64,000 bases of DNA from an uncultured Dehalococcoidales bacterium (lineage in GTDB: Bacteria; Chloroflexota; Dehalococcoidia; Dehalococcoidales; UBA5760), in assembly GCA_964472625.1 (NCBI GenBank), contig CAYYLM010000005.1:15576-79575 (forward strand), in the 5' to 3' direction. The notes under the pieces were generated by a model. The model saw only the letters and a list, made by a program, of their open reading frames with translations, searched no databases and had not been told where the DNA came from. Shown piece by piece: positions 36,164 through 58,487 of this stretch. The translations under genes were made by a program, and so were the position numbers. Position 1 is the first letter of the stretch. The number at the start of each line of letters is the position of its first letter.

Positions 36164-36853
36164 ATGAAGCTAGTTTTTATCCCTGGAGCCGCTTGTGGTA
36201 AGAGGGCGTGGCTGTGTCAGGCCCTATATTTTGCTGATTCGGAAGTGATTGCCCTGCCTGGTCATCCTGAAGGTAAGCCCTGCTCCAGCGTTGATGGTTA
36301 CGTGGCGTGGCTGCGGGGCTACCTTGAGGAGCAGTCGCATCAGGATGTCGTTCTAGCCGGTCATTCTATGGGGGGTGCTGTGGTTCAGCAGTACGGGCTG
36401 AAGCATGGCGATGGGATAAAGGCTTTGGTTTTAATTGGCACCGGAGCTAGACTCAGGATTCACCCTGACCTGCTTGAGGCAATTAGGGGTATGATCGATA
36501 GTAAGCGGGCATGGCGGGAGTATTTGGAAGAGCGTCATCGTAACGCAGTGCCTGAAGTTAGGCGGACCATAATTGAAGAGCGGCTGCGCATTGGGCCGGC
36601 GGTGATGCTGAACGACCTGCTCGCCTGTGATAAGTTTGACATGCTGGCGGAGGTCCATAATATCAAGCTGCCGACGCTGGTTATCGGTGGCAGTGAAGAC
36701 GACCTGACACCCGTAAAATATGCGCACTATCTAACGAGCCAGATTAAGGGAGCCCGTGAGGTTATCGTTCCCGGGGCAGCTCACTGGGTGCTCACCGAGA
36801 AACCGAAAGAGGTTAATCAGGCGATAGAGCGCTTTCTTGCCGAGCTTGCCTGA
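36164..36853 (+). CDS. Alpha/beta-fold hydrolase
   Basis: 229 aa with the nucleophile elbow GHSMGG and a C-terminal His (GAAHW) typical of the fold. Confidence 0.7.
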   Translation: MKLVFIPGAACGKRAWLCQALYFADSEVIALPGHPEGKPCSSVDGYVAWLRGYLEEQSHQDVVLAGHSMGGAVVQQYGLKHGDGIKALVLIGTGARLRIHPDLLEAIRGMIDSKRAWREYLEERHRNAVPEVRRTIIEERLRIGPAVMLNDLLACDKFDMLAEVHNIKLPTLVIGGSEDDLTPVKYAHYLTSQIKGAREVIVPGAAHWVLTEKPKEVNQAIERFLAELA

Positions 36854-38681
36854 GTGCAGCGTGTTTCTGCCGGCAGGCTGGATGACGGCGCTGGAGACCA
36901 CAGGCACTGCAGTCCCGATAACGGCAATCTGGGGTTTCCTGGTTTTTGAGGGCGTTTTTAAATTCTCGCTTGAGGAAGGCTTGGGTTACTCCAATATCTA
37001 TGTGAGCCCAGGGTAACGGCTCGTCCAGGGATAGTTCCCGCTGGGCATAGAAACTAGGTTCAAGTCCGGTCTCCTGGAAGGCACGGAGCCAGTTTTCGTA
37101 ATTAAAGTGCTCGCTCCAGCCGTCGAAGGTGTTACCCAGTTGCCAGGCGTGATGGATAACCCTGCCTAACCGGCGGTCGCCTCGTGACATAGCGGCTTCA
37201 AGCTGGCTTACCTTTGGGTCGTTCCAGGATAGCCTGACCTCCTTACGGCGCAGCCTCTGTTTCAGAAGCTCAATCTTGGCGTTTAGCTGCTCTTCGCTTT
37301 CCTGAGTCACCCACTGAAAGGGGGTGTGCGGTTTGGGCACGAAGGTGGACAGGCTGACCCTTATCTGGGGTCTCCGGCCCCTGGTTCTTTTCCCTAGGGA
37401 GCTGATTTTGTCTATCAGGTCGGCTATTGCCTCAATATCGTCCCTAGTCTCGTTAGGCAGGCCAAGCATAAAGTAGAGCTTGAGAGCGTTCCAGCCACGG
37501 CTGAAGGCTTCGGCAGCGGTTCCCAGGATGGTATCCTCGGAGGTGTTCTTGTTGATTGCTTGCCTGAGTCGCTGGCTACCGGCCTCAGGGGCAAAGGTGA
37601 GCCCGGTTCTTTTGTGGGTGGCTAGAGAGTCGAGTAATCTAAGCGATAGGTTATCAATCCGCAGACTGGGCAGTGACAGGATGAGATTCTGGTCTTGATA
37701 GCGTTGGAACAGGCTGGCTACCAGCTCGTCAAGGTGGGGGTAGTCGCTGGTGCTTAAGGAAACCAGGGAGAATTCGTTATAGCCACAGTTAGCAATAAGC
37801 TCACCGACTGCCCTGAGCACCTCCTCTGGGGAGCGTTCCCGCACCGGACGGTATATGTTTCCCGCCTGGCAGAAGCGGCAGCCGCGGCTACAGCCCCGCT
37901 GAATCTCAACGGCTCCCCGGTCGTGGGTAATCTCGATATAGGGGACAACCGGTCTGGTGGGTGGTGGTGGTAACTCGTTTACTAGCTGCCTTTCAATACG
38001 GGGTCTAGCCTCGGTTACAGTGGGGGTGATGCTTTGGAAAAGACCGCTGGCCTCGTAGGCTACCTGGTAGAGACTGGGTACGTAGATACCGGCTACCTGC
38101 GCCAGCCGGCGCAAGCGCTCTTCTCTAGGGGCCATCTCCTTTTTCCAGTCCCGGAGGGAGCTAAGTAGCTCAAGGACAGCCTCTTCGCCGTCCCCGATTA
38201 CGAAGCCGTCAATGAAGTCTGCCATCGGCTCGGGGTTTAGGGCGCAGCTACCACCGGCGATGACCAGGGGGTGGGAGACACTTCTTTCTGAGGCGAGCAG
38301 TGGAATCCGGGCGAGGTCGAGCATATTGAGCACGTTGGTATAGGTGAGTTCGTAGCCCAGGGAAAAGCCGATGATGTCGAAATCCTGCAAGGGGTGCTTG
38401 GATTCCAAGCTGAAGAGCGGAATACCGCTACTGCGGAGTTGGGCAGCCATATCGGGCCAGGGAGCAAAGGCCCTTTCCGCTAGTACATCCGGCTGGCTAT
38501 TGAGTAGCTCGTAGAGGATGTGTATCGCCAGGGTGGACATCCCGAGCTCGTACAGGTCCGGGTAGGAGAGGACAATCCGGAGCGGGGTCTTGTCCCAGTC
38601 TTTGGTGACGCTGTTCCACTCGCCGCCGGTATAGCGGGCGGGCTTAATCACTTGGCTCAAAACATTATCGAGCTCGGTCAA
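36813..38681 (-). CDS. B12-binding-domain radical SAM protein
   Basis: 622 aa. It has an N-terminal B12-binding-like domain (FDIIGFSLGYELTY) and a radical SAM site (EIQRGCSRGCRFCQAG). The TTG start follows AGGAG. The 3' end overlaps the convergent hydrolase gene by 41 nt. Confidence 0.85.
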   Translation of the reverse strand: MTELDNVLSQVIKPARYTGGEWNSVTKDWDKTPLRIVLSYPDLYELGMSTLAIHILYELLNSQPDVLAERAFAPWPDMAAQLRSSGIPLFSLESKHPLQDFDIIGFSLGYELTYTNVLNMLDLARIPLLASERSVSHPLVIAGGSCALNPEPMADFIDGFVIGDGEEAVLELLSSLRDWKKEMAPREERLRRLAQVAGIYVPSLYQVAYEASGLFQSITPTVTEARPRIERQLVNELPPPPTRPVVPYIEITHDRGAVEIQRGCSRGCRFCQAGNIYRPVRERSPEEVLRAVGELIANCGYNEFSLVSLSTSDYPHLDELVASLFQRYQDQNLILSLPSLRIDNLSLRLLDSLATHKRTGLTFAPEAGSQRLRQAINKNTSEDTILGTAAEAFSRGWNALKLYFMLGLPNETRDDIEAIADLIDKISSLGKRTRGRRPQIRVSLSTFVPKPHTPFQWVTQESEEQLNAKIELLKQRLRRKEVRLSWNDPKVSQLEAAMSRGDRRLGRVIHHAWQLGNTFDGWSEHFNYENWLRAFQETGLEPSFYAQRELSLDEPLPWAHIDIGVTQAFLKREFKNALKNQETPDCRYRDCSACGLQRRHPACRQKHAALRQARQESALSPD

Positions 38682-38874: not shown

Positions 38875-39672
38875 TTAGCTATCTAGCTGTGCCAAATCAA
38901 ACCTCATGCCGTCCCGGGCGCTAATTACCCTGACCCCGGTCTCCTGAGAGAGACTCTGGGCTACCTCCCAGGGTCGGGCCCGCCACACGGACATCCCGAA
39001 GTGGGTCAGTATGGCAACCTTTGGCTTGAGTTCGGTAATAAGGCGCTTGGCGTCGGGCACGGAGAGGTGGTCAACGGGCGGCTTGGGTTCGAAGAAGACG
39101 ACGTTGATGATGAGCAGCTCGCCGCCGTAGCTCTCAAGCAGGCCGTCAAAGTAGCGGGTATCGGCGATATAGGAAAAGGTGTGCTCAGCCGTCTTAAAGA
39201 CAAAGCCGTAGGTTTCTACCGGGTGGACGTGGCGGATGGGGGTGGTGAAGGATAGGTTCCCGACGGTGTAGGACTTTCCTTCCTTTAGAAGCTCAATACC
39301 CTCGAGGTAGTCTCGCAGGTAGGAAAAGATAACCGGCTCGTTTTCCAGGGCATCAGCGGGGGTAAAGAGCCAGCCGCGGTGCTTGAAGCCTCCCTGGGTC
39401 ATTGCCTCAACCATAACGTTAATATCTCCGGCATGGTCCAGGTGGCGGTGGGACAGGATAATGGCGCTCAGCCTATCGGCTCTGAGCTTCCTCTTGGTGG
39501 ACTGGACAATGCAGCCGGGACCGGGGTCAACTAGTATCTCGGTACCGCTCAGGTTAAGCCACATGCCCCCCGAAGCCAGAATCTGGGTGGCCACCATGAT
39601 TCGGGCGCCGCCCGTTCCCAGAAAAGTGATGGTATCTGCGGGAGTCTTTTTATCCTCCATGGCTATAGACAC
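38875..39672 (-). CDS. MBL-fold metallo-hydrolase
   Basis: 265 aa. It has the HxHxDH motif (SHRHLDHAGD) and downstream His/Asp ligands. Confidence 0.8.
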   Translation of the reverse strand: MSIAMEDKKTPADTITFLGTGGARIMVATQILASGGMWLNLSGTEILVDPGPGCIVQSTKRKLRADRLSAIILSHRHLDHAGDINVMVEAMTQGGFKHRGWLFTPADALENEPVIFSYLRDYLEGIELLKEGKSYTVGNLSFTTPIRHVHPVETYGFVFKTAEHTFSYIADTRYFDGLLESYGGELLIINVVFFEPKPPVDHLSVPDAKRLITELKPKVAILTHFGMSVWRARPWEVAQSLSQETGVRVISARDGMRFDLAQLDS

Positions 39673-39750
39673 TATAAGGTATGAGGGTGCTTTATGACAA
39701 TCTCTTTATTTCTGAGGTTATTTTGTGTATGATATCTTATATAGAGTGAA

Positions 39751-39944
39751 ACCCGGTTAATTACCTGAAAGGGAAGGAGGTGAGAGCTGTGCTCTGGATG
39801 ATACGTCTTAACCTTGCTGGTAGCTGATGCCAGAGTTGCGGCACAGGTTCTGTGCCGGTCAGGCTCGAAGACCTCCCTTCCGCCTCTGAGCAGATTACAG
39901 GTTAGCACCGTAATCTTCCGGTTAAGATAATTTGGCACTTACTG
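39751..39944 (+). promoter_or_regulatory. Structured 5' leader RNA (riboswitch/attenuator candidate, class not recognised)
   Basis: An outer helix pairs GGGAAGGAGGT (39771-81) with ACCTCC(C)TTCC (39871-81). It encloses hairpins AGAGC-TGT-GCTCT (39783-95), CTGGT-AGCTGAT-GCCAG (39817-33) and CGGCACAG-GTT-CTGTGCCG (39839-57). GATTAC-N11-GTAATC follows at 39893-39915. Confidence 0.5.
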
Positions 39945-39985
39945 AGCGGTGGTGCGGAGTTCTTCGGCCACCGCTTATTTATTTT
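39945..39985 (+). terminator. Intrinsic terminator-like hairpin + U-tract immediately upstream of the operon start
   Basis: AGCGGTGG (39945-52) pairs with CCACCGCT (39968-75), with an inner CGGA/TTCG extension and a GTTC loop. TTATTTATTTT follows. The U-tract is present only in the plus-strand orientation. Confidence 0.6.
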
Positions 39986-40005
39986 AAGAAAGGATTAGAA
40001 ATATC

Positions 40006-41286
40006 GTGACTACTGATTATAGACCAATGTGGACTAGTCTCGGCCTGGACCTTGAGGCGCATGATATCCTCCTGAACGTTCTGGGGCAGGCCTATCAGGA
40101 CACCTTCCTCTCCCAGAAGAACCGTCCTGAGGGCATGAGCTATCTTGACTTCGTGATGAGTGAGGTTCATGGTCTCCGGATTAAGGAGTTACAGGATGCC
40201 AGAAGTGAGGGGCGAAAGGTCATCGGCACCTTTTGCGTCTTTGTCCCGGATGAGCTTATTCTAGCCGTCGATGCCATTTCGGTGGGGCTGTGTGCCGGGG
40301 CTGAATTCGGGTTTGATGAGGCGGAGAGGCTGCTGCCTCGTAATACCTGTTCCCTGATAAAGTCCTTTTTTGGCTTTAAGCTGAACCGGGTTTGCCCCTA
40401 TATGGAGGCTGCCGACCTCTTGGTGGGCGAGACCACCTGCGACGGCAAGAAAAAGGCCTATGAAATCTTTAAGGGTATCCAGCCCAATATCTATGTCATG
40501 GAAGTCCCCCAGATGAAGACGGCCCAGGATAGAGCTTTGCTTAAGAGTGAGTATTTACGCTTCAAAGGAGAGCTGGAGAGGCTAACTGGTGTAACCATCA
40601 CTGCGGAGCGGCTTAAAAAGGGTATCAGCTTAGTCAACAGTCGCCGCGAGGCACTCTCCCGCTTGGCGGCGCTGCGGGCGGCTCGCCCGGCGCCCATCTC
40701 CGGTCTGGATGCCCTGCTCATAAATCAGGTTGCCTTCTATGACGACCCGGTGCGCTTCACTGGTGCCGTGAACAAAATCTGTGACGAGCTTGAGGGGCGG
40801 GTTGGCGCTGGCGAGGGGGTGTCTCCTAAAGGGACGCCCCGTATACTCGTCTCCGGCTGCCCTATGGCGGTGCCTAACTGGAAGCTAGCGGCAATTATCG
40901 AGGGCTCCGGCGGGGTAATCGTTGGGGAAGAGTCGTGTGTCGGGGAGCGGGGCACCAGGAACCTGGTGGTGGAGACCGGTAGCGATGTTGATACCCTGAT
41001 GGAGGCTATCGTGGACCGCTACTTCAAGGTTGATTGCGCCATCTTCACCCCCAACCCGGAGCGGCTCGACAATGTGGTCGATATGGTGGCGAGATATAAG
41101 GCTGACGGGGTTATCCACTACGCCCTTCAGTTCTGCTCACCCTATACGGTGGAGTCCTACCGGGTGGAGCAGGAGATATCTAGCCGGGGAATACCGGTAC
41201 TCAGGATTGAGACGGACTACTCTCCGGAGGATGTCGGTCAGCTAAAGACGCGAGCCGAAGCCTTTCTGGAGATGATACGGAAGTGA
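40006..41286 (+). CDS. 2-hydroxyacyl-CoA dehydratase/BcrC-family Fe-S protein, single-subunit type (double-cubane cluster protein DCCP-like reductase)
   Basis: 426 aa. Family motifs are KVIGTFCVFVPDELILA and VGETTCDGKKKAYE. Conserved Cys residues occur in SGCPMAV, EESCVGE and LQFCSPY. The GTG start follows AAGAAAGGA. Confidence 0.8.
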   Translation: MTTDYRPMWTSLGLDLEAHDILLNVLGQAYQDTFLSQKNRPEGMSYLDFVMSEVHGLRIKELQDARSEGRKVIGTFCVFVPDELILAVDAISVGLCAGAEFGFDEAERLLPRNTCSLIKSFFGFKLNRVCPYMEAADLLVGETTCDGKKKAYEIFKGIQPNIYVMEVPQMKTAQDRALLKSEYLRFKGELERLTGVTITAERLKKGISLVNSRREALSRLAALRAARPAPISGLDALLINQVAFYDDPVRFTGAVNKICDELEGRVGAGEGVSPKGTPRILVSGCPMAVPNWKLAAIIEGSGGVIVGEESCVGERGTRNLVVETGSDVDTLMEAIVDRYFKVDCAIFTPNPERLDNVVDMVARYKADGVIHYALQFCSPYTVESYRVEQEISSRGIPVLRIETDYSPEDVGQLKTRAEAFLEMIRK

Positions 41287-42029
41287 CTAGCGCCGGGCTT
41301 GATGTGGGCTCACGCACCATTGGCCTCGTTCTGTTTGACGGCGGGGTTGTGGACTCGGTGGTTACGGATACCGGGATTAAGCCTCTTGAGCGGTGCCAGC
41401 AGCTTCTTGACGGCCGGGGCTACCGCCGGCTTGTGGTGACCGGTTACGGTCGCCACCTGGTAGCCCCCTTGTTGGGCGGCGAGGTTATCTCCGAGATCAG
41501 CGCTTATGCCGCGGGTGCCCATTACCTCTATCATGACTCGGGCACGGTGATCGATATCGGCGGTCAGGACAGTAAGGTTATCCGGCTCTCCGACCAGGGA
41601 GCGGTGGTCAGGTTTGAGATGAACGACCGCTGTGCCGCCGGTACCGGTAAGTTCCTGGAGGTAATGGCACATACCCTGGAGGTCAGCTTGAGTGAGTTCG
41701 CTGAGCTTGCCTTAAGCGCTTCAAAATTTGTTCAGATAAACAGCCTGTGCACCGTTTTCGCCGAATCGGAGGTGGTCTCCCTTATTGCGCGCGGTGAGGA
41801 GGCTAGCGCCATCGCGCTGGCGTTACATCAGGCTGTTGCCAAACGTATCACGGGCATGGTTCACCGGGTCGGGCTTAAGGAAAGGGTCATCTTCGCTGGT
41901 GGGGTGGCCCGGAATCAGTGTCTTCACGAGCTTCTCAGCGACATGCTGGGTGTTGAGATTACTGTCCCTAGTGAGCCGCAGATTGTCGGCGCTCTTGGTG
42001 CTGCTCTCATGGCTGGCGGTGGGATATAA
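41283..42029 (+). CDS. BcrAD/BadFG/HgdC-type ATPase (CoA-enzyme activase / electron-transfer activator)
   Basis: 248 aa. It has ASKHA motifs GLDVGSRTIGLV, IDIGGQDSKVI and NDRCAAGTGKFLE (bridging-cluster Cys). A GTGA overlap couples it to the upstream gene. Confidence 0.88.
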   Translation: MTSAGLDVGSRTIGLVLFDGGVVDSVVTDTGIKPLERCQQLLDGRGYRRLVVTGYGRHLVAPLLGGEVISEISAYAAGAHYLYHDSGTVIDIGGQDSKVIRLSDQGAVVRFEMNDRCAAGTGKFLEVMAHTLEVSLSEFAELALSASKFVQINSLCTVFAESEVVSLIARGEEASAIALALHQAVAKRITGMVHRVGLKERVIFAGGVARNQCLHELLSDMLGVEITVPSEPQIVGALGAALMAGGGI

Positions 42030-42046
42030 ATACGGGCGGAGGTATT

Positions 42047-42589
42047 ATGCAGGTTTCAAACGGTAAGGCAGAGGAACGTTTTGAGGGTGGGGGCATAGTG
42101 CTTTTCTCGGCGGTGCGCCAGGCGCTGGATGCGCATCAGGTTCTTCGGGACGCTGGCTATGAGGCTCGGCTGGTTGCCCCGCCACCCCAGCTACGTAAGG
42201 GCTGTGATCTGGCGGTAGAGGTAAAGCTGGTGGAAAAGCCGGCTATTGAGCGGCTGCTCGGGCAGAAGGGCGTCGATTACCTGAGCCTTGAGCCGCTAAA
42301 GGTAAGCACTTCCCAGCTTCTGGAAATCGTGACGGTGACTGATTTCGGCAGGTGGCTCATGGTCAAGGCGGGCAATATGAAACTCACCTTCGCTAAGGAC
42401 AGTGGCGAGATTATGAACACCTCCGGTGGCGGCTGTCCTGACATTCCCTATCTCCACGCTGAGCTAGTTGGTAAATCGCTTACTGAGGCACCGCGACCAA
42501 GGCAAATCGGTTTTACTCTCTGTGCCCTGATGCTGGAGCAGGCGCTGCTTGAGGGTCTGAGGCTCTACGAAGGAGGTAGCCAGCGATGA
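42047..42589 (+). CDS. DUF3343 (putative Se/S carrier-like) domain fused to an uncharacterised C-terminal domain
   Basis: 180 aa. The N-terminal GIVLFSAVRQALDAHQVLRDAGYEARLVAPPPQLRKGCDLAVEV matches the DUF3343 pattern (conserved Cys in ..GC..A). I did not recognise the C-terminal roughly 95 aa (NTSGGGCPDIPYLHAEL). Confidence 0.6.
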   Translation: MQVSNGKAEERFEGGGIVLFSAVRQALDAHQVLRDAGYEARLVAPPPQLRKGCDLAVEVKLVEKPAIERLLGQKGVDYLSLEPLKVSTSQLLEIVTVTDFGRWLMVKAGNMKLTFAKDSGEIMNTSGGGCPDIPYLHAELVGKSLTEAPRPRQIGFTLCALMLEQALLEGLRLYEGGSQR

Positions 42590-43488
42590 TGCTTATTGCG
42601 GGCACTATCCCGATTAAAGACCTACCTCTGGTCGCGGGCAGGATGAAGAGGGAAGGCGATACCTTGGTTATCGCTGACTACAGTCTTCCCTGCGCTCAGG
42701 GAACTGGGGCAATGATTAGCGCCGCTCAAGCAACTACTGACTATCTCAAGCTTGCCCCACCGCAGGTAGTGGTCGCTGGGGATATTGGTGAGGGCGGGGG
42801 CAGTCGCCAGATTTACCAGTATCTTATCCAGAATGTGGCCCGGCTTTCCCCCAGGGTGCTGGCGCTACACTACTGCCTGCCGGATATGGCTCTAGCCAGG
42901 AGACTCTGTCGGGCGGTGGGAGAGTGTCACCCGAGACCGCTCCTGATTGCTGATGCCGGGTCGATGTACGCCGCTAAGGCCGCCGGTCTGGCTAGGGAGT
43001 TTGATGTTTTTACCCCGGATGCTACTGAGCTTGCCTTCCTGGCTGATGGGGAGGCGACCCATCCGGCTTATATTAACCGGCACCTATTTTGTGCTGATAT
43101 TACCCGGGTCCCAAGACTGATAGTAGCTGCTTATCGCCAGCGCAGTGCTGCCCGGCTGCTGCTGGTCAAGGGAGCCACTGACTATATCGCGCGCCACGGG
43201 GAGATTCTGGCTACTGTCGCCGAACCCGACGTTCCCGAGCTGGAGGCAATCGGCGGCACCGGTGATACCATCACTGGGCTACTTTCGGCGTTTGTCGCTT
43301 GTGGACTTGAGCTTCATGAGGCAGCCATAATCGCTGCCCGGGTAAACCGTACGGCGGGAAAATTGGCTCGGGTGACGGTAGCCAGCGGGGTCAAGCAGGT
43401 TATCAGCCAGTTTCCGGCGGTTTTTAAAGAGTATCTTTGTCGCTGGAGTGGAGTATGCTCAATCAAGGGAGGTAGCTACCATGAGTGA
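42586..43488 (+). CDS. Ribokinase-fold protein, YjeF_C / NAD(P)HX-dehydratase-like (or small-molecule kinase)
   Basis: 300 aa. FTPDATELAFLA, LLVKGATDYIA and EAIGGTGDTITGLLSAFVACGL correspond to YjeF_C/ThiM-type motifs. An ATGA overlap couples it to the upstream gene. Confidence 0.65.
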   Translation: MMLIAGTIPIKDLPLVAGRMKREGDTLVIADYSLPCAQGTGAMISAAQATTDYLKLAPPQVVVAGDIGEGGGSRQIYQYLIQNVARLSPRVLALHYCLPDMALARRLCRAVGECHPRPLLIADAGSMYAAKAAGLAREFDVFTPDATELAFLADGEATHPAYINRHLFCADITRVPRLIVAAYRQRSAARLLLVKGATDYIARHGEILATVAEPDVPELEAIGGTGDTITGLLSAFVACGLELHEAAIIAARVNRTAGKLARVTVASGVKQVISQFPAVFKEYLCRWSGVCSIKGGSYHE

Positions 43489-44056
43489 AATTGATGCCCG
43501 GGGGCTTCCCTGCCCCCACCCGGTTACTAAAACCAAGAAGGCACTGGAGGAAATAGAGTCGGGGCAAATCACCGTCCTGGTTGATAGCCCGGAGAGCTGT
43601 GAGAACGTGCGGCGGTTTGCCCAGAGCCAGGGCTGTCAGGTAGCGGTCAGGGAGGGGGAAGGGGTCTTTTATCTGGATATTACCAAAGGAGTTTCACCTC
43701 AAACTGAACTGAAGACAGGGGGTGGCGAGGTTGTTCTTATTACCAGCGACCAGTTCGGTGTCGGGGACGAGAGATTGGGTGAAATCCTGATGAATGCCTT
43801 CTTAAATACCCTGTGGGACTATGAGCCGAAGCCCGCTAAGCTACTCTTTATCAATAACGGCGTCCGGCTGACTACGGAGGGCTCTGAGGTCTTGGAGAGC
43901 CTAGCGCTACTTGAGAAAAAGGGGGTTCAGGTATTTTCTTGCGGTACCTGCTTGGAGTATTATAACCTTGGAGACAAGCTTAAGGTGGGGCTGGTGAGTA
44001 ACATGTATGCGACAGTAGATGCCCTGCTACAAGCGACTAAGGTTATTAAAATCTGA
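43481..44056 (+). CDS. yedF: YedF-type protein: TusA/SirA-like CPxP domain + DsrE-like domain (selenium/sulfur metabolism protein YedF family)
   Basis: MSEIDARGLPCPHPVTKTKKALEEI is the TusA-like active Cys. The C-terminal half has VVLITSDQFG...LFINNGVRL...CGTCLEYY. The ATG at 43481 follows AGGGAGG and overlaps the upstream stop by 8 nt. The ORF is open from 43448. Confidence 0.8.
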   Translation: MSEIDARGLPCPHPVTKTKKALEEIESGQITVLVDSPESCENVRRFAQSQGCQVAVREGEGVFYLDITKGVSPQTELKTGGGEVVLITSDQFGVGDERLGEILMNAFLNTLWDYEPKPAKLLFINNGVRLTTEGSEVLESLALLEKKGVQVFSCGTCLEYYNLGDKLKVGLVSNMYATVDALLQATKVIKI

Positions 44057-44066
44057 GGGGGGTTAA

Positions 44067-44555
44067 ATGGAGCAGATCTGGGCGCCGTGGCGTATTCAGT
44101 ACATCCAGATGGAGAAGCCGCCCGGCTGCATTCTATGTGAGAAACCAGGGGAGAATAGCGATGCTCAAAATTACATTCTCTATCGCGGGAGCCAGAACTT
44201 TGTCATCATGAATAGCTATCCCTATAACCCGGGGCATCTAATGGTGGCGCCCTATCGCCACGTGGCTAACCTTGACGGACTAGCCGATGATGAGCTTTGC
44301 GAACACTTCAAGATAGTCAGCCGGTGCAGTAAGCTGCTACGCGAGGTATTCAACCCCCAGGGTTTTAACATCGGCATAAACCTGGGTAAGGTAGCCGGGA
44401 CTGGTATCGATGAGCATGTCCATACTCACATCGTGCCCCGGTGGCAGGGAGACACCAACTTCATGCCGGTGATATCAAATATACGGGTAGTGCCGGAAGC
44501 CCTAGCCGAAACCTACCAGAAGCTTAAGGACAAGTTTCGAGCTGAGAAGCCTTGA
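44067..44555 (+). CDS. HIT-family nucleotidyl hydrolase/transferase (Ap4A-phosphorylase-like subgroup)
   Basis: 162 aa with APWRIQYI, NSYPYNPGHLMVAPYRH and the histidine triad HVHTHIVPRW. GAGGGGGG lies upstream, and the gap after yedF is 10 nt. Confidence 0.85.
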   Translation: MEQIWAPWRIQYIQMEKPPGCILCEKPGENSDAQNYILYRGSQNFVIMNSYPYNPGHLMVAPYRHVANLDGLADDELCEHFKIVSRCSKLLREVFNPQGFNIGINLGKVAGTGIDEHVHTHIVPRWQGDTNFMPVISNIRVVPEALAETYQKLKDKFRAEKP

Positions 44556-44563
44556 GTTATTGC

Positions 44564-45307
44564 TCAGTCCCCGAAGTAGCCTTTGTCTAGGTCGGCGCTG
44601 TTGGAATAGCCCCGGCTTTCCCAGAAACCCCGGTAATTAAGGTCGCTGGATAGCTCGATTTCGGTGATCCATTTTATCCACTTATATCCCCATTTGCTCT
44701 CGGCAACAAGCTCAAAGGGGAACCCCCGCTCCGGGGGCAGCGTCACGCCGTTCATCTTGTAGGCCATCAGAATGTCGTTGTCCATGATGTAATTGATGGG
44801 TAGCGAGGTGGTATAGCCGTCGTAGGCGTGAAAGATGATCACCTCGGTCTCGGGTTGAGGGCTTGCCTCCGAAATCAGGTCTCTAACTAGGACTCCCTCC
44901 CAGAGAAGCTTGACACTCCACCCCTCAACACAGTTGAGGGTGACCACTTTCTCATACTGCTGATGGTTGCTTACGACCTCGTCGTAGGTGAAGGCTTGGG
45001 GCTTGCTTACCAGACCGCTTATCTTAAGATTGTAGCTCTCAATGTCTACCTGCTGCGGTCCCTTTATTGAGTTCTCCCGGAAGTCGTTTATTGACGAAAG
45101 CGGTTCGCCCTCATATTCTCTAATCTCTACCGGTTCTAGCGGTACTGGTTCTTGAGCACCTTGGTCAGTACTGCAGCCGGCTATACCCAGCACGCCGGTG
45201 CCGAGGGCAATGGCCAAAACGATAAGGCTAATGTCAGTGATTATTCTCTTCACTTTATAACAAATCTCCTCCTTAGTAGGGTACAAACGGGCAAAATAAT
45301 AACCCAT
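44564..45307 (-). CDS. Molybdopterin-dependent oxidoreductase domain lipoprotein (sulfite-oxidase/YedY-fold)
   Basis: VVTLNCVEGWSVKLLWEGVLVRDLI and GFPFELVAESKWGYKWIKWITEIEL are present. The signal/lipobox is LGIAGC. An alternative start is the GTG at 45253. Confidence 0.8.
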   Translation of the reverse strand: MGYYFARLYPTKEEICYKVKRIITDISLIVLAIALGTGVLGIAGCSTDQGAQEPVPLEPVEIREYEGEPLSSINDFRENSIKGPQQVDIESYNLKISGLVSKPQAFTYDEVVSNHQQYEKVVTLNCVEGWSVKLLWEGVLVRDLISEASPQPETEVIIFHAYDGYTTSLPINYIMDNDILMAYKMNGVTLPPERGFPFELVAESKWGYKWIKWITEIELSSDLNYRGFWESRGYSNSADLDKGYFGD

Positions 45308-48209: not shown

Positions 48210-48362
48210 ATCTTGGCGGACCTCTAGCTAGTTACGGTTAAAGCATAGCAGAGGCAGGGCCACGAAACAATACGGTAATTTAGCCACGGTGCTTACAGCT
48301 CAAGTTTGCTTTTGTCCGATGCCATCAGCTATACTTTGGGGAGTCTGTGCCGGGGTTATCTT

Positions 48363-49406
48363 ATGAGTGAAATCAAGTCTCCTTATCTGGTGGATTGGGC
48401 AATAACCGGAAAGTGTGACCTTAGCTGCCGCCACTGCCGCGGTTTTCCTGAAGGAGAAATCTCTACGGCTAGAGCCAGCCGGCTCACCAGTGAGATAGCC
48501 GAGCTTAAGCCCGGCTGGGTGATTATTGAGGGCGGCGAGCCATTGCTGCGGGAGGACATCTTTGAGTTGTTGGGCTTGCTGCGAGAGCGTGGGCTTGAGG
48601 TTCACCTGATTACCAATGGTATGCTGATAAGCCCGGAGATAGTTAGCGGCCTTAAGCGGCTTGGGATAAGGGTGATGGTGAGCATTGATGGCGCCACCCC
48701 GGAAACCTATGAGAGGGTGAGACACGGCGCCAGCTTTGAGCAGGTGGTTCGCTCAGCGCGCGAATATGCCAGGGCCGGACTTCTGGAAGCAATTAACTTC
48801 TCTATTTTGAGGATGAACTACCCGGAAATAACGGCGGTTTTCAGATTGGCAAGCTCAATTGGGGCACCCAAGGTTACCCTGATCGGGCTTAAGCCGTGTG
48901 AGGACTATGCTGCCGAGCTTCTCTCTCCTCGAGAGTACAAAGAGGCCATCAGGCTTACCTGCCAGGCAGCACAGGAAACGGGGATTGAGTTTTTCTTTGA
49001 CGAGCCCTTCTTCTGGGCTACGGTGAAGGAGCGTAAGCTTAGCGCCAGGCTGCCAGACGAAGGTGCTGGCATCGTCGTTGCCGCTACCTCAGCCTGTGCC
49101 TTTGGCGACTACATTTTTATTGAGGTTAACGGCGATGTCAAGCCCTGCAGCTATACCTCGATGGTCGTCGGTAACGTCAGTGAAAAGTCACTGGTTAGAA
49201 TCTGGGATGAGATGCTGGCCTCCCGACTTATTAACCAGATTAAAGACCCGAAGACTAGAACCGGAGCCTGTCTCAATTGTAGATATCTGGAGGAGTGTAA
49301 GGGGTGTCGCTCCCGCACCTTTGCCCTTACCGGTGACTGGTTTGCCTCTGATCCCGTCTGCCCTTTGCACACTAAGATAACTTCAGTTAAGGAGGGGATT
49401 AAGTGA
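48363..49406 (+). CDS. Radical SAM enzyme with C-terminal SPASM domain
   Basis: The radical SAM site is WAITGKCDLSCRHCRG (CxxxCxxC), with GGEPLL. The SPASM Cys motifs are CAFGDYIFIEVNGDVKPCSY, GACLNCRYLEECKGCRSR and DPVCP. The ORF is open from 48306. The ATG at 48363 gives a typical N-terminus. Confidence 0.85.
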   Translation: MSEIKSPYLVDWAITGKCDLSCRHCRGFPEGEISTARASRLTSEIAELKPGWVIIEGGEPLLREDIFELLGLLRERGLEVHLITNGMLISPEIVSGLKRLGIRVMVSIDGATPETYERVRHGASFEQVVRSAREYARAGLLEAINFSILRMNYPEITAVFRLASSIGAPKVTLIGLKPCEDYAAELLSPREYKEAIRLTCQAAQETGIEFFFDEPFFWATVKERKLSARLPDEGAGIVVAATSACAFGDYIFIEVNGDVKPCSYTSMVVGNVSEKSLVRIWDEMLASRLINQIKDPKTRTGACLNCRYLEECKGCRSRTFALTGDWFASDPVCPLHTKITSVKEGIK

Positions 49407-52641: not shown

Positions 52642-53442
52642 ATGAACATGATAGTCTGTGTTAAGCAGGTGATTGACCCTGAGGCGCCGCCGGCCAGCTT
52701 CAAGGTTGATGCCGCTAAGAACACGGTAACGCTACCGCCGAGCATATCGCCGGTAATCGATCCTTACGCTGAATATGCGGTGGAGGCAGCCCTGAGAATC
52801 AGAGATGCCCAGGATGGTAAGATCACCGCCATAAGCCTAGGCACTAACCTCTTACGGGATGTGGTCAAGAAGCCACTTTCTATGGGGGCTGATGAGCTTA
52901 TCCTGCTTGAAGACGAGTCCTTTAGTGATGGTGATAGCTACTCAACAGCCTATGCCCTGGCCATGGCCATCAAGAAGGTTGGTGACTACGATCTCATCTT
53001 CTGCGGTCGGCAGGCTTCTGACTGGGATGCCGGGCAGGTGGGCTTGGGTATTGCTGAGGTATTGGGCCTGCCCAGTGTAACCCTGGCCCAGAAAATAGAG
53101 GTCACCGACGGCAAGGCGAGGGTGGAGAGAGTCACCGATGATGGTTATGAGGTGATTAGCGTAGCTTTACCGGCCGTGATTACGGTAAGTAACGAACTTG
53201 GGGAGCCTCGCTATCCCACCATAAAGGGGATCATGGCTGCCAAGAAGAAGGAGCCGGTTATCTGGAAACCGGCTGATATTGGGGCTACGCCGGCTCAGGT
53301 TGGGGCTTCAGGTCGGCGCACTAAACTCATGAAGCTGTTTCAACCGGTTCGCGAGGGGAAGTGTGAGATTATGGAGGGAGAGACCCCTGAAGAGGCAGCG
53401 GCTAATCTAGCCCTGAAGCTCAGGGAGGCTAAAGTAGTATGA
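52642..53442 (+). CDS. etfB: Electron transfer flavoprotein, beta subunit
   Basis: 266 aa with MNMIVCVKQVIDPE, DLIFCGRQASDWDAGQVG and PRYPTIKGIMAAKKK. Confidence 0.9.
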   Translation: MNMIVCVKQVIDPEAPPASFKVDAAKNTVTLPPSISPVIDPYAEYAVEAALRIRDAQDGKITAISLGTNLLRDVVKKPLSMGADELILLEDESFSDGDSYSTAYALAMAIKKVGDYDLIFCGRQASDWDAGQVGLGIAEVLGLPSVTLAQKIEVTDGKARVERVTDDGYEVISVALPAVITVSNELGEPRYPTIKGIMAAKKKEPVIWKPADIGATPAQVGASGRRTKLMKLFQPVREGKCEIMEGETPEEAAANLALKLREAKVV

Positions 53443-53475
53443 AAATCCTTTGGTTTGTTAAGGAGGCAGGTTCTA

Positions 53476-54474
53476 ATGGCGGAATATAATGGGGTTATGG
53501 TTTTCGGTGAAGCTAAGGAGGGGAAGCTAGCGGTAATCACCACCGAGCTTTTGGGTTGTGGTCGCCGGCTGGCAAGCGAACTAGGGCAGGAACTGTCGTG
53601 CCTTTTGGTCGGTAGTGATGTAAGCGGTCTGGCTCAAGAAGCGATTAGCTTTGGGGCTGATAAGGTATATGTGGTTAGCGATCCACTCCTTAAAAACTAC
53701 CAGACGGATACCTATGTTTTCGTTACGGAGAAAGTAGCCAAGCAGGTTATGCCCAAGATACTCCTGCTGGGGCATACCGCTCTCGGTCGTGACCTGGCCC
53801 CCCGGCTGGCTTTCCGACTGGGTACTGCACTTACTACCGACTGTGTCGAATTAGCTATTGACCCGGACTCAAAAGCGCTCCTTATGACTAAGCCAGTTTA
53901 CGGGGGTAATGCCCAGGCTATCTTCGCCAGTGAGTCCCTTCCCCAAATAGCTACGGTGAGGACTAAAGCCATGTCCCCCCTTGAGCGCGATGACTCAAGG
54001 CAGGGAGAGATAATTACTATTGAGGCTGGCTTAGACCCATCGTCCCTGAGAACGGAGTTTTTGGAGAGGGTGGTAGCTGAGGTGGAGGGGATAAGGCTCG
54101 AGGATGCCGAGGTCGTCGTTGCCGGTGGTCGGGGGATTGGTAGTGCTGAGGGCTTTGAGCAGCTGGAGGAACTGGCTAAGATACTGAAGGGAGCTGTGGG
54201 CGCCAGCCGACCGCCCTGTGATAATGGCTGGGTGCCATCCGGTTATCAGGTCGGTCTTACCGGTAAGATTATCGCCCCCGACCTTTATATTGCGGTAGCC
54301 ATATCCGGGGCCAGTCAGCACATAACCGGTTGTTCTGGTGCCAAGACGATTGTGGCCATCAATAAAGACCCGGAGTCAAACATCTTCCGGGAAGCCAGCT
54401 TTGGGGTGGTCGGGGACTGGAAAAAGGTGCTGCCCGCTTTCACTGCCAAGGTTAAGGAACTTCTCACCGATTAA
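53476..54474 (+). CDS. etfA: Electron transfer flavoprotein, alpha subunit
   Basis: The ATG follows AAGGAGG. The FAD-binding C-terminus has VVAGGRGIGSAEGF, GASRPPCDNGWVPSGYQVGLTGKIIAPDLYIAVAISGASQH. Confidence 0.9.
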   Translation: MAEYNGVMVFGEAKEGKLAVITTELLGCGRRLASELGQELSCLLVGSDVSGLAQEAISFGADKVYVVSDPLLKNYQTDTYVFVTEKVAKQVMPKILLLGHTALGRDLAPRLAFRLGTALTTDCVELAIDPDSKALLMTKPVYGGNAQAIFASESLPQIATVRTKAMSPLERDDSRQGEIITIEAGLDPSSLRTEFLERVVAEVEGIRLEDAEVVVAGGRGIGSAEGFEQLEELAKILKGAVGASRPPCDNGWVPSGYQVGLTGKIIAPDLYIAVAISGASQHITGCSGAKTIVAINKDPESNIFREASFGVVGDWKKVLPAFTAKVKELLTD

Positions 54475-54542
54475 ACTTAGCGCTGAGTATTAGGCATCGT
54501 TACCGAAGCTAACTAGGTGGAGTATGGGCGTGGGGTAGTCGT

Positions 54543-56603
54543 TTAGCCCTCCTTTTCGGCCTGCCTTTCGGCGATGATGCGCTGGCTGATTTGAGGTGGC
54601 GTCTCCTCGTAGTGGCTAAATTCGGCACTGAAGCTGCCCCGCCCCTGGGTTATTGACTTCAGGTCAATTGCGTAGCGCAGAATCTCAGCCTGCGGCACCT
54701 GGGCTTCAATAGCATTCATCCCATTCTCCGGGTTCATGCCCAGCACCCGGGCCCTTTTGGCGTTTAAGTCGCCGATAATATCACCTGTGAAGTCCTCAGG
54801 AACCCTTACCCGGAGGTTCATTATCGGTTCTAGGAGGATTGGTTGCCCCCCGGCTAGACCCCTCTTCAGTGCCCCGGCGCCAGCAATCTTGAAGCAGATG
54901 TCTGAGGAATCAACCGGGTGAAAGCTACCGTCGTAAAGGGTGGTTCTAATGTCTACCACCGGGTAGCGGGCTAGTGTGCCCTCACCGGCGGCTTCCTTAA
55001 CCCCCTTCTCGACCGACGGAATATAGTTCTTGGGGATGGTGCCGCCCACTATCCGGTCAATAAACTCGTGACCACTACCGCGGGGCAAGGGCTCTAGCTC
55101 CAGAAAGACGTGCCCGTACTGACCATGACCTCCGGTCTGTTTCTTGTGCTTATATTCGGCTTTGGCCGGTACGGTGATGGTCTCTTTATAGGGAACCTTG
55201 GGGGTCTTGAGCTCGACATTGACCCCGAATTTACGCTGCATCTTATCGGCGGCTACCTCCAGTTGAGTCTCACCGAGGCCAGATAGAATAGTTTCATTAG
55301 TATCTGCCTCTCGGTGAATCCGGAGAGTGGGGTCTTCCTCAATTATACGGGAGAGGGCTACCCCCAGCTTGTCTACGTCAGCCTTGGTCTTGGGGTGTAC
55401 TGCCTCGCCGAAGGCCGGCTCCGGGAATTGGGCTGGGGCGACTTTCAGCGGCTTATCGCGAGTGCCCAGAGTATCTCCGGTGTTGGTCAGGCTTAATTTG
55501 GCGACCCCGCCGATGTCCCCGGCGCTAAGCCGGGCTACCGGTTCCTGATTCTTACCCCTCAGGATGAAGAGCTGACCGAGGCGCTCCTGCTCCCCGCGCG
55601 TTGTGTTCCATACCTGGGAATTGCTCTCAATGGTGCCGCTGTAGACCCGAAAGTAGGTGAGCTTGCCGACATACGGGTCGGCGCTGGTCTTGAACACCAG
55701 GGCAGCCAGGGGACCGTCAGGGTTTGGCTTAATCCTCGGCTCACCTTTCTCAGCGAGAAGGATTACGTCCGGCTCTTTGGGTGAGGGTAGGTAGTGATGT
55801 ATCGTGTCGAGCAGCGGCTTAATGCCTATATTCTGGGTTGCCGAACCGGCGAGGATAGGTACAATCCGCCGGCTCACCACCCCCTCACGTAGGCCATTAG
55901 TTAGCTCCTCAAGGCTGAGTTCCTCACCACCGAGGTATTTCTCAATCAGCTCATCACTAGTCTCAGCGATGGCCTCAATCAGTTTCTCCCGAAAGGAGTT
56001 GACCTCGGTCTGTAGCGAAGAAGGTATCTCCCCCTCTTTAGGTGGGGCGCCGGTATAGCTTTTCAGGGTGATAAGGTCCACTATGCCTTGAAAATCGTGC
56101 TGAGCACCGATGGGTAGCTGGATGGGGGTACATTTAGAACCGAATTTTGCCTGAATCTGCTTTACCGTTTGGAAAAAGTCGGCATTCTCGCGATCCATTT
56201 TATTAACGAGGATGAGCTTGGCTAGGCTTGCCGCCTCACTGTATCCCCAGACCTGCTCCGTGCCGACCTCAACGCCGGAGGCGGCACAGACCGTAATTAC
56301 CGCTGCCTCGCTGACCCGGATGGCAGCTTTGACTTCGCCGACAAAGTCGGCATAGCCCGGGGTATCAAGCAGGTTTATCTTGACATCCTGCCACTCGGCG
56401 GGGAGTATGGTCAGGTTAAGACTAATCTTGCGCTTTATCTCATCAGGGTCATAATCTGAGACCGTCGTCCCGTCATCGACCCTACCCAGTCGGGTGGTGG
56501 CGCCAGCCGTAAACAGCGCTGCCTCAGCTAGTGATGTCTTGCCGGCACCACAATGAGATAGCAAAACGACGTTACGAATATTCTCCAGTCCATACTGTTT
56601 CAT
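54543..56603 (-). CDS. fusA: Elongation factor G family GTPase (stand-alone paralogue, not in an str operon)
   Basis: 686 aa with G motifs SHCGAGKTS, DTPGYADF and NKMD, followed by EF-G domains II-V. Confidence 0.9.
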   Translation of the reverse strand: MKQYGLENIRNVVLLSHCGAGKTSLAEAALFTAGATTRLGRVDDGTTVSDYDPDEIKRKISLNLTILPAEWQDVKINLLDTPGYADFVGEVKAAIRVSEAAVITVCAASGVEVGTEQVWGYSEAASLAKLILVNKMDRENADFFQTVKQIQAKFGSKCTPIQLPIGAQHDFQGIVDLITLKSYTGAPPKEGEIPSSLQTEVNSFREKLIEAIAETSDELIEKYLGGEELSLEELTNGLREGVVSRRIVPILAGSATQNIGIKPLLDTIHHYLPSPKEPDVILLAEKGEPRIKPNPDGPLAALVFKTSADPYVGKLTYFRVYSGTIESNSQVWNTTRGEQERLGQLFILRGKNQEPVARLSAGDIGGVAKLSLTNTGDTLGTRDKPLKVAPAQFPEPAFGEAVHPKTKADVDKLGVALSRIIEEDPTLRIHREADTNETILSGLGETQLEVAADKMQRKFGVNVELKTPKVPYKETITVPAKAEYKHKKQTGGHGQYGHVFLELEPLPRGSGHEFIDRIVGGTIPKNYIPSVEKGVKEAAGEGTLARYPVVDIRTTLYDGSFHPVDSSDICFKIAGAGALKRGLAGGQPILLEPIMNLRVRVPEDFTGDIIGDLNAKRARVLGMNPENGMNAIEAQVPQAEILRYAIDLKSITQGRGSFSAEFSHYEETPPQISQRIIAERQAEKEG

Positions 56604-56637
56604 CTAATCACCTGTTCTCCCTAGTTTATTCCCTCAT

Positions 56638-56667
56638 ATTATAGTCGTAGTTGGCTAGAGGCGGCAA
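56638..56667 (-). promoter_or_regulatory. Putative promoter TTGCCG-N18-TATAAT for the EF-G gene
   Basis: On the minus strand there is a perfect TATAAT (56643-56638), about 35 nt upstream of the ATG at 56603, which follows GGGAGAACAGG. Confidence 0.45.
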
Positions 56668-56699
56668 GTAACCCTGTCTTGGTTACTTATGCGTCTTGA

Positions 56700-57614
56700 C
56701 TACAGCCCGAAGGTGGACTTAAGAAAGTGGAGGATTTTTCGCTTAAGTAACGGGTACCACAGCCAGATAGTGGCATGGCCACCGGGGAACCAAGAGATAG
56801 CTGGCTTGCCACTTGCCTTCCAGAAGTCAAGCGTTGCCTCTCGGGGAATGACCTCATCCCAGCGGGCGTTTATCAGTAGCAGGGGGCGGTTACGGAGCAG
56901 GTGAGCGTAGGTCATAGCGTCAATGAGAAAACCTCTCTCCGGCGGGTTGACCGTCTCAATCCCCTTCTCGGCTACTTCATTGAGGTATCGGGAGTAGCGG
57001 TGCTGTTGGGTGGTGAATTCCGCTTTAGTGTGCCTAAATCCCCACCTTTTGGGTAGGGTCTTACTCATAAAGGCAATCTTTTCCAGATTGCCTCCGCTAG
57101 CTACCAGCACCCCGGCTCTAATCCGGCTATCTATCCCCATGGCGATTGCTGAGATGAAGCCGCCGAAGCTTATCCCGATGACCCCAATCTGCTCTTTATT
57201 TAGCTCGGCTCTGGTCTCGGCCCAGTCGATTACCTGGCGCACATCAATTACGGAGATTCGGTAGTTCTCAAACCACTCATCTGAGCTGAGGCGGCTCGGT
57301 CCGCTGGGGGGCATACGGCTGGAGTGCAGCACCAGGTACAGGATAAAGCAGGCTATTCCCCTTCTCACCAGAGACCGGGCCAGGAGTTTTAAGGGAATTA
57401 CGCTCCGGTCACCCAGCCCGTGAATTAGAATCGCTAGAGGCAGCTTACGGCCAGTTTTGGGTCTGAAGTATTCGCCCCAGACGGTGTTACTTTTCTCATA
57501 GTGGGTGGGGTGGGCCGTAGGAAAACTAACCGTATAACGCTGCCAGCTACGATTTTCCTTGGCTAGCTTAACGTTGAAACCTGGATTATCGGCCTGATAA
57601 CTATATAGATTCAT
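56700..57614 (-). CDS. Alpha/beta hydrolase (dienelactone-hydrolase/peptidase S9-like)
   Basis: 304 aa with the nucleophile elbow GISFGG, and downstream Asp and His (GGHATIW). Confidence 0.65.
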   Translation of the reverse strand: MNLYSYQADNPGFNVKLAKENRSWQRYTVSFPTAHPTHYEKSNTVWGEYFRPKTGRKLPLAILIHGLGDRSVIPLKLLARSLVRRGIACFILYLVLHSSRMPPSGPSRLSSDEWFENYRISVIDVRQVIDWAETRAELNKEQIGVIGISFGGFISAIAMGIDSRIRAGVLVASGGNLEKIAFMSKTLPKRWGFRHTKAEFTTQQHRYSRYLNEVAEKGIETVNPPERGFLIDAMTYAHLLRNRPLLLINARWDEVIPREATLDFWKASGKPAISWFPGGHATIWLWYPLLKRKILHFLKSTFGL

Positions 57615-57638
57615 TATTTATAAACCAGTAAGTAGCTG

Positions 57639-58487
57639 TCACGGCCTTTGCTGACGCTCCCGGTAGGCTCCGATGTAACGCCGGGCATAGGCGTCTTGGT
57701 TAAGGAGAAGGTCAGCGGCTAAAACCGCCGGGCGCACTTTGGCTACGTCCACAATGAGGCAGGTTACGCCGGTGGCAATAGCCATGGCCACCAAGTTGCT
57801 ATTGAGCAGATTGCGGTCAGGTAAGCCGAAGGAGATGTTACTTACGCCCAGTGTCAGGTTTACGCCCAGTTCAGCCTTAATACGCCCTATTGTTTCCAGG
57901 GTGACCAAGCCCGACCCGGGGTCGGCTGCCACCGCCAGAGCCAGGCAATCAATGATAATGTCCTCGGGGGGGATGCCCACCGCCCCGGCACGCTCGATAA
58001 TCTTGCGGGCGATGGCAAGTCGTCGCTCAGCGTCTTTGGGGACGCCCTGTTCGTCCTGCGCGAGACCGATAACCGCCGCCCCGTATTCCTTGACCAGGGG
58101 CAAAACCTTCTTTAGGGAGTGCTCTTCACCGGTTACCGAGTTAATGAGCGGCTTACCCTGGTAGACCTTAAGGGCTGCTTCCAGGGCCTCAGGATTGGGG
58201 CTATCAAGGCATAGTGGTACCTCGACTGTTTCCATTACCAGTTGCACTGCTTGGGGGAGCCGGCTTACCTCGTCAATCCCGACACTAGCGACATTAATAT
58301 CGATGATGTCCGCCCCGGCTTGAACCTGAGATAGGGCCTCCTCACGGACAATCTCCAGATCGCCGGCCCTGAGGGCTTCAGACATCCTTTTCTTACCCGT
58401 AGGGTTAATCCGTTCCCCAATAAGTACGGTGGGGTGGCCGTGACCAATGATTACCTCCCTGGTGGCACTTGAAACCCTAGTTTCCAT
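57639..58487 (-). CDS. Methyltetrahydrofolate:corrinoid methyltransferase (pterin-binding, AcsE/MeTr-like)
   Basis: 282 aa with IGERINPTGKK, ADIIDINV, LCLDSPNPEALEAAL, PLINSVTGE and GVSNISFGLP. Confidence 0.85.
   Translation of the reverse strand: METRVSSATREVIIGHGHPTVLIGERINPTGKKRMSEALRAGDLEIVREEALSQVQAGADIIDINVASVGIDEVSRLPQAVQLVMETVEVPLCLDSPNPEALEAALKVYQGKPLINSVTGEEHSLKKVLPLVKEYGAAVIGLAQDEQGVPKDAERRLAIARKIIERAGAVGIPPEDIIIDCLALAVAADPGSGLVTLETIGRIKAELGVNLTLGVSNISFGLPDRNLLNSNLVAMAIATGVTCLIVDVAKVRPAVLAADLLLNQDAYARRYIGAYRERQQRP

Follow-up and report, generated by a model that had tools for sequence, protein, structure and literature searches.

Classical leader-peptide attenuators, such as the proteobacterial trp, his, leu, thr, ilv and pheA leaders, carry a short translated open reading frame (ORF) and form mutually exclusive 1:2, 2:3 and 3:4 helices, with termination as the default outcome when no ribosome is present. 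Other attenuators depend on a ribosome that stalls on a short upstream ORF (uORF), as in the antibiotic-responsive leaders detected by Term-seq and in mgtL/mgtA of Salmonella. The terminator/antiterminator concept has been reviewed (PMC5314783). Here we describe a 265-nt leader found in 64,000 nt of an uncultured Dehalococcoidales bacterium (contig CAYYLM010000005.1; this whole stretch is called the window below), where it precedes an operon encoding the double-cubane-cluster reductase DCCP and proteins linked to selenium metabolism. The leader is very probably a real, conserved cis-regulatory element that acts by conditional termination. As to what it senses, we lean, with clearly less assurance, towards a leader-peptide transcription attenuator for the DCCP/selenium-metabolism operon that responds to ribosome occupancy of a mini-ORF.

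The leader is located in the 345-nt gap separating two divergent units, an MBL-fold hydrolase gene upstream (38875-39660/72, minus strand) and the DCCP operon downstream (40006-44555, plus strand). The minimum free energy (MFE) structure of positions 39740-40010 (271 nt; -91.2 kcal/mol, z = -2.4; equalled in stability by 3 of 200 shuffles) is a multi-stem junction followed by a terminator, as proposed in an earlier, model-made note on this DNA (hereafter the original prediction). The outer helix of the junction, P1, joins 39771-81 to 39871-81 and has the single bulge described there, at C39877; its interpretation as a Shine-Dalgarno (SD)/anti-SD pair was confirmed, AAGGAGGU being paired with ACCUCC. 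Within P1, the inner helix P2 (GAGCU 39784-88 with GGCUC 39862-66) encloses helix P3 (CUCUGG 39792-97 with CCAGAG 39830-35) and hairpin P4 (39839-57), a perfect 8-bp stem (39839-46/39850-57) with a GUU loop. The multi-stem junction is therefore as it had been drawn, except that it consists of two conserved hairpins, P3 and P4, plus P2, and not of three independent hairpins. A spacer hairpin at 39893-39915, also part of the original prediction, does form in the window fold; it is specific to the window's own clade and missing from the consensus structure. The leader ends in a strong predicted intrinsic terminator (39943-85) in which a 15-pair stem, its upper part included (5' arm 39943-58, loop 39959-62, 3' arm 39963-77), rests on the pairing of AGCGGUGG (39945-52) with CCACCGCU (39968-75) and is followed by a U-rich tract (39975-85). 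Here UUAUUUAUUUU ends at 39985, 20 nt upstream of the GUG start at 40006, in agreement with the original prediction.

To collect homologous leaders, DCCP loci were retrieved through their proteins and then searched with nhmmer and with a covariance model (R1). The element is present in 12 contigs belonging to five lineages, and the nearest relatives of the window are metagenome-assembled genomes (MAGs) of uncultured Dehalococcoidales/Dehalococcoidia. The leaders were grouped as follows: clade A with the window, its near-identical relative L090, L161, L162 and L081; clade B with L163, L001 and L082; clade C with L164 and L181; and clade D with L083, L177, L178 and L180. In every case the leader lies directly 5' of the DCCP gene, always in Dehalococcoidales-like contigs, and the gene on its other side varies (four contexts, among them radical S-adenosylmethionine (SAM) plus MBL genes, tRNA-Ser or a TOBE protein). 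The window holds one copy, and R1 gave no additional copies over the 181 fetched loci and the window, nor any match upstream of DCCP operons with the order Se_S_carrier, Carb_kinase, DCCP. Where DCCP is not the first gene of its cluster the leader is missing, as in L002 (short, plain upstream region) and L005 (long, AT-rich one), both without an R1 match. So far the leader is restricted to a narrow clade of uncultured Dehalococcoidales.

The alignment of homologous leaders shows conserved main helices, with covariation concentrated in P4 and the terminator and almost invariant P1 and P2. Covariation was computed on the 10-sequence alignment A5, in which 94% of the cells at consensus pairs are standard-paired, compared to 34-49% after a shift of the partners by 1-3 columns; 13 pairs have changes on both sides, a number reached by 0 of 500 shuffles. 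P4 has compensatory changes at four of its eight pairs (98.8% of cells paired) around an invariant apex CAG-G[U/G]N-CUG, with loops GUU, GGU or GUC. In the terminator (-18.7 kcal/mol) five of the 15 pairs have changed on both sides, 96% of cells are paired, and a U-rich tail follows the stem in every lineage. Only clades A and B have an intact P3; in L164, L083 and L177 this helix is disrupted or displaced. The repeat CCGGTTAA, which had been offered as a means of alternative pairing, does occur at 39753-60 and 39918-25; it is limited to the window and the near-identical L090, and was rejected in that role.

A different pair of alternatives emerged. Segment 1 (39771-88), nearly invariant in 12 sequences, is composed of the 5' arm of P1 (39771-81), including the SD AAGGAGGUGA (39774-83), and the 5' arm of P2 (GAGCU). 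Segment 2 (39862-87), whose strand GGCUCGAAGACCUCC… is also nearly invariant, comprises the 3' arm of P2 (GGCUC 39862-66), GAAG, the 3' arm of P1, which amounts to a cis anti-SD (ACCUCC-C-UUCC 39871-81), and an extension. Segment 2 is complementary both to segment 1, as in P1/P2, and to the terminator 5' arm and loop (segment 3, 39945-69). In the window the 2:3 duplex has 20 pairs and -30.8 kcal/mol, equalled by 1 of 1000 shuffles. Among nine distinct sequences it ranges from -24 to -33 kcal/mol in eight and is -19 in L164, always matched by no more than 4% of 1000 shuffles, and the 1:2 duplex (-20 to -26 kcal/mol) is matched by no more than 3.2%. When the terminator 5' half is compared with the whole upstream leader, segment 2 is its best partner in eight of the nine, and 90% of the cells of the antiterminator core are paired. 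This competition explains the strong conservation of both strands and also that of the terminator loop, which is conserved in sequence.

Folding of successively longer prefixes gave the order of events. The 1:2 pairing appears once segment 2 is transcribed, the 2:3 antiterminator is the MFE structure just before the last terminator bases emerge, and the complete leader again folds best as 1:2 together with the terminator. With segment 1 masked, the antiterminator is the equilibrium MFE in only two of nine homologues (L163 and L001), so the switch must be kinetic, which is consistent with the prefix folds. The leader looks like a kinetically decided, classical four-segment attenuator.

Immediately downstream of segment 1 there is a mini-ORF of 12 codons (39789-39827, plus strand) that begins with GUG at 39789, ends with UGA at 39825-27 and reads MLWMIRLNLAGS; most of it is enclosed by P3. 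Its SD, which should pair with about 10 nt at the 3' end of 16S rRNA, contains the sole occurrence of AGGAGGUGA in the window, and segment 1 likewise has the sole AGGAGGTGA of the 64 kb. The arrangement SD AAGGAGGUGA, 8 nt, GUG or AUG, and 10-12 codons is kept in 12 of 12 sequences, the start being AUG in L164 and clade D and GUG elsewhere, and the length 12 codons, or 10 in clade D. The homologous peptides are MLWRLRLNIAVS, MLWILRFCLAVN, MLWIARLYLASN, MLWIARLFLASS, MIWIPHRNFART and MTWITRTNFHQT, together with MTWLSYPMIT and MTWLSHPMIT; all lineages have Trp at codon 3 and UGA as the stop. In seven within-clade comparisons, 18 synonymous differences were counted on 50 sites and 22 non-synonymous ones on 169. 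The resulting ratio of non-synonymous to synonymous differences per site (pN/pS) is 0.36 in the mini-ORF frame versus 1.72 and 1.14 for the same nucleotides in the other two, a mark of frame-specific purifying selection. The comparison of L083 with L177 is illustrative: the mini-ORF has four synonymous and no non-synonymous changes, and the P3 partner strand lost pairs while the peptide stayed the same. Beyond the UGA there is no frame-specific coding signal. We conclude from this coding signature that the mini-ORF is probably translated. A double stop, TGA AAC TGA, was seen in L177 (621-629) and L178 (841-849), its second TGA aligning with the stop of clades A-C; a new stop seems to have arisen in clade D two codons ahead of the old one, which in L083 has since become CGG.

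The mechanism that we favour would work as follows. Transcription would begin near 39740 and soon produce segment 1, a very strong SD AAGGAGGUGA plus GAGCU immediately 5' of the 12-codon leader ORF. By default, this segment would pair with the cis anti-SD strand (segment 2) as soon as the latter is made, forming P1/P2 and closing the P3/P4 junction. With 1:2 in place, segment 3 (terminator 5' arm and loop) would pair with segment 4 (terminator 3' arm), and RNA polymerase would stop at the U tract 39975-85, leaving the operon OFF. A ribosome placed on the SD and the first leader-ORF codons during the transcription of segments 2 and 3 would instead mask segment 1, allow the 2:3 antiterminator to form and lead to readthrough into the operon (ON). 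Such a ribosome might be held there by initiation, by queueing behind another one paused at the UGA, or by stalling while the Trp codon occupies the A site. Candidate inputs would be a pause at codon 3, the invariant Trp, events at the equally invariant UGA beside P4, or general initiation capacity. That ribosome position decides the outcome, in which direction the switch works and which signal feeds it are what we infer from this arrangement.

Several points weigh against this reading. The transcription start, the 3' end and the translation of the mini-ORF are all deduced from sequence. The peptide is poorly conserved between lineages, the minimum numbers of changes at the three codon positions being 11, 10 and 12, although such drift between lineages is as in leader peptides. 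There is just one candidate regulatory codon, for Trp, with no tandem codons, in front of an operon without known tryptophan link. In L083, L177 and L164 the start codon is engaged in base pairing, so the G/A change found there could mirror RNA pairing and not start identity. The antiterminator is almost devoid of covariation, both strands being nearly invariant, and in L164 the 2:3 energy is only marginally better than that of shuffles (40 of 1000). An OFF riboswitch or a protein-bound leader would have an identical 1:2/2:3/3:4 layout. Finally, the phylogenetic depth is shallow.

The operon itself was annotated with Pfam and NCBIfam matches above curated cut-offs. Its genes encode, in order, DCCP (NF040772, 479 bits, cut-off 350; SD AAAGGA 39989-94 and GUG start, 39989-40008), the ATP-dependent activase of DCCP, a DUF3343 'Se/S carrier' protein, a YjeF_C/Carb_kinase-like protein, YedF, a 'sulfurtransferase-like selenium metabolism protein' (TIGR03527, 223 bits, cut-off 110), and a HIT-family protein. 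DCCP reductases have no known physiological substrate, nor is there an explanation for why they occur almost universally together with selD (Haft 2022 preprint, 10.1101/2022.07.06.499078). Since 955 of 970 DCCP genes are found in selD-containing genomes (preprint 10.1101/2022.07.06.499078), we regard the operon as selenium-associated. The set DCCP, activase, DUF3343 (Se_S_carrier), Carb_kinase-like and TusA/YedF recurs in many contigs of Dehalococcoidia and Desulfobacterota (e.g., L167, L169, L172 and L174), with an order different from that of the window (Se_S_carrier, Carb_kinase, (TusA), DCCP, activase, YedF), and it appears to be a conserved module for selenium/sulfur handling that is still uncharacterised. 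In clade D a molybdopterin oxidoreductase of 690 aa (L177 2880-3614; L178 3082-3833) takes the place of the Se-carrier genes after the DCCP-activase pair; therefore, the leader tracks DCCP-activase and not the remaining operon. In L177 this pair is preceded by a gene for a TOBE (molybdate-binding) protein at 274-483.

Compared with the described systems, the mechanism is of a familiar kind and the particular element is not in Rfam. The original prediction had denied the presence of the known riboswitch classes, and this held: the covariance models of Rfam 15 (4227 families) had no match in the window at the gathering threshold, and a relaxed scan (E <= 10) of 39640-40060 and 39815-39870 returned only chance-level hits, namely fragments and a terminator-like match to Xoo2. 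As in other leader-peptide attenuators, there is an ORF with its own SD and start, a predicted intrinsic terminator between this ORF and the first gene, and an antiterminator that cannot coexist with the terminator or with an upstream anti-antiterminator. Clustered regulatory codons for an amino acid made by the operon are lacking, the single Trp codon being all that there is. With the trp, his, leu, thr, ilv and pheA attenuators the leader shares the apparently translated ORF, the four segments and the predicted termination when unoccupied. It departs from them in that segment 1 is the SD/start region, paired with a cis anti-SD, and does not lie inside the coding region; in that the ORF body is found in the loop between segments 1 and 2; in having one invariant Trp instead of a run of regulatory codons, before an operon that is not for amino acid biosynthesis; and in the hairpin after the UGA, which resembles a selenocysteine insertion sequence (SECIS). 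The short-uORF leaders also have an ORF of about 10 codons, and in them, as predicted here, ribosome occupancy selects the leader structure and controls premature termination. Unlike mgtL/mgtA and the antibiotic leaders, this one precedes no resistance or Mg2+ transport gene, has no Pro-rich or known arrest motif, and combines an intrinsic terminator with an SD/anti-SD anti-antiterminator. The design is unusual for an attenuator: the anti-antiterminator strand is supplied by the very strong SD of the leader ORF itself, which pairs with a cis mimic of the 16S anti-SD. The literature searched contained no selenocysteine (Sec)-dependent leader-peptide attenuator and nothing on the leaders of DCCP operons; no leader-peptide attenuator of Dehalococcoidia came up either, in searches that did not target that question.

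Other explanations were weighed against the ribosome sensor. The original prediction had spoken of ligand- or protein-controlled attenuation, of which the conditional termination is sustained by the conserved, covarying terminator and the dual pairing of segment 2, while for the sensor the mini-ORF fits better. An OFF switch of that type, in which the P1-P2-P3-P4 junction would act as an aptamer, be stabilised by a small molecule (one with sulfur or selenium, for example) or by a regulatory protein, keep segment 2 in P1/P2 and so lead to the terminator, with the mini-ORF being incidental, seems to us unlikely. It would have a canonical riboswitch expression platform, because the 3' strand of the aptamer is shared with the antiterminator just as the junction-closing helix is in three-way-junction OFF riboswitches, with the intrinsic terminator coming next; P4 has the invariant apex and covarying lower stem expected of a recognition site, and the fold is more stable than shuffles. 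However, no Rfam family matched this element even at E <= 10, and one of its 'stems' carries a selected reading frame: the structure of P3 is not conserved, yet its frame and peptide are, with a frame-specific pN/pS (0.36) unexpected for a non-coding stem. Moreover, nearly all conserved junction nucleotides can be ascribed to the SD and its complement, to the start codon or to the competing pairings, the P4 apex alone being left over. Since so little is left that might serve as a binding core, a metabolite aptamer was ranked below a ribosome sensor. Still harder to accept is that nothing is regulated here, that is, that the terminator is a constitutive or leaky insulator, or that the terminated transcript of about 240 nt is a free-standing small RNA or small-peptide gene, which we consider very improbable. 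Such a transcript would indeed be discrete, stable, structured and peptide-encoding, but the element always travels with the DCCP gene through four upstream contexts, the 20 nt between the terminator and the DCCP start hold no separate promoter, and the conserved dual complementarity of segment 2 would be purposeless.

It is also rather improbable, in our judgement, that the leader is a selenium sensor working through the selenocysteine machinery, with P4 as a SECIS or SECIS-like element bound by SelB and the operon responding to selenium status. Either the UGA at 39825-27 would be read as Sec when Sec-tRNA(Sec) is available, so that the ribosome covers segment 2 and the terminator forms, or SelB on P4 would stabilise or destabilise the junction. 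Every lineage ends the mini-ORF with UGA, even clade D, where the stop was placed independently, but TGA is in any case the most frequent stop of the window (22 of 58), and in L177 and L178 another in-frame UGA comes two codons later. The bacterial SECIS consensus (stem of 4-16 bp, loop of 3-9 nt with G then G/U, UGA-to-loop distance of 16-37 nt; PMC13188914) is matched by P4, which in clades A-C starts 10-12 nt past the UGA, with a stem of 7-8 bp and a loop G[U/G]N, the UGA-to-loop distance being 18-20 nt (28 nt in clade D). This consensus is, however, loose and permissive, no Rfam SECIS family matched, and the UGA-to-P4 spacing is 20 nt in clade D versus 11 nt elsewhere. The geometry is also similar to that of the SaoC element accepted by Haft (UGA, 10 nt, 7-bp stem, GGU loop; 10.1101/2022.07.06.499078). 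The MFE of P4 is -13.6 kcal/mol in clade A, -14.7 in clade B and -13.8 in L083, compared with -7.3 in L164 (SECIS threshold <= -7.5), and P4 is not the MFE fold in L181 and L177; its weakness in L164 and L181 speaks against a SECIS. A precedent exists in the E. coli selAB leader, where a SECIS-like hairpin serves SelB-dependent repression (PMC13449736). With bacterial SECIS elements and that hairpin P4 shares its position 11 nt past a UGA, its 7-8-bp stem, its small G[U/G] loop and its place in the leader of a selenium-linked operon (PMC13188914; PMC13449736), which here includes YedF, the DUF3343 carrier and DCCP with its selD association. Unlike them, it is not beside the SD of the regulated gene, its spacing differs in one clade, and the UGA is not inside a coding sequence conserved on both sides; P4 is a candidate SelB site. 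The frame after the UGA has no coding signal, and its register with P4 or segment 2 varies between lineages. A longer selenoprotein read through the UGA was rejected on these grounds, as that frame is under no frame-specific constraint, is not conserved and meets the second UGA in L177 and L178. The window and the related loci fetched yielded no sel genes, no tRNA-Sec and no gene for a selenoprotein, and a scan of the window for in-frame TGA codons with SECIS-like hairpins gave a single, spurious hit, inside another gene's opposite strand.

The leader is preceded by a putative sigma-70-type promoter (39705-33, plus strand), with a weak -35 element TTTATT (39705-10), a 17-nt spacer and the -10 element TATGAT (39728-33). 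Its conservation supports it: GTATGATATC is kept in relatives, L001 and L081 have TTGCCA-17 nt-TATGAT/TATTAT, and clade D has TATACT at a similar distance. Because of this conserved -10 element, transcription probably starts near 39740, upstream of 39750 as the original prediction requires. A simple promoter/terminator scanner detected neither the promoter nor the terminator of the leader, since the -35 is weak and the bulged 15-pair stem may not suit a plain stem-and-loop pattern. About 10 nt past the inferred start there is a 7-nt palindrome ACC(C/G)GGT (window 39751-39757; L001 around 3286-3292), with the middle base flipped between clades A and B; this palindrome is missing from clades C and D and may be a small operator or due to chance. 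On the minus strand (39660-39700), the divergent MBL-fold gene has a promoter-like site TTGTCA-18 nt-TATAGT that ends at 39671, only about 10 nt before the conserved ATG at 39660. This short distance suggests that the MBL-fold mRNA is leaderless or almost so. Both ATGACAAT and CTATAAGG are kept in L001. An antisense ORF at 39938-39672 (88 aa) was rejected, its stop-free length varying from 43 to 88 codons across homologues.

The remainder of the window (G+C around 55%) offers some further observations. The leader and its operon are flanked by two radical SAM genes, a B12-binding one of the TIGR03960 family (786 bits) at 36813-38681 (minus strand) and a SPASM-domain one adjoining a DUF1464 gene at 48306-49406 (plus strand). 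Converging on the end of the operon, at 44564-45307 (minus strand), is a gene for a short (247 aa) molybdopterin-binding Oxidored_molyb protein, MsrP/SorA-like and below curated cut-offs. The region 52642-60337 includes genes for electron-transfer flavoprotein (ETF) alpha and beta, a paralogue of elongation factor G (EF-G), a pterin-binding (CdhD/AcsE-like) protein and the RACo corrinoid-activase, a set consistent with a Wood-Ljungdahl-type methyl branch in this organism.

A conserved switch before the DCCP-activase-YedF-DUF3343 operon provides an experimental handle on these genes, and finding the inducer of the leader would give a lead to the signal and the substrate of the pathway. If the UGA and its SECIS-like hairpin were functional, they would represent a new way to sense a trace element through translational recoding.

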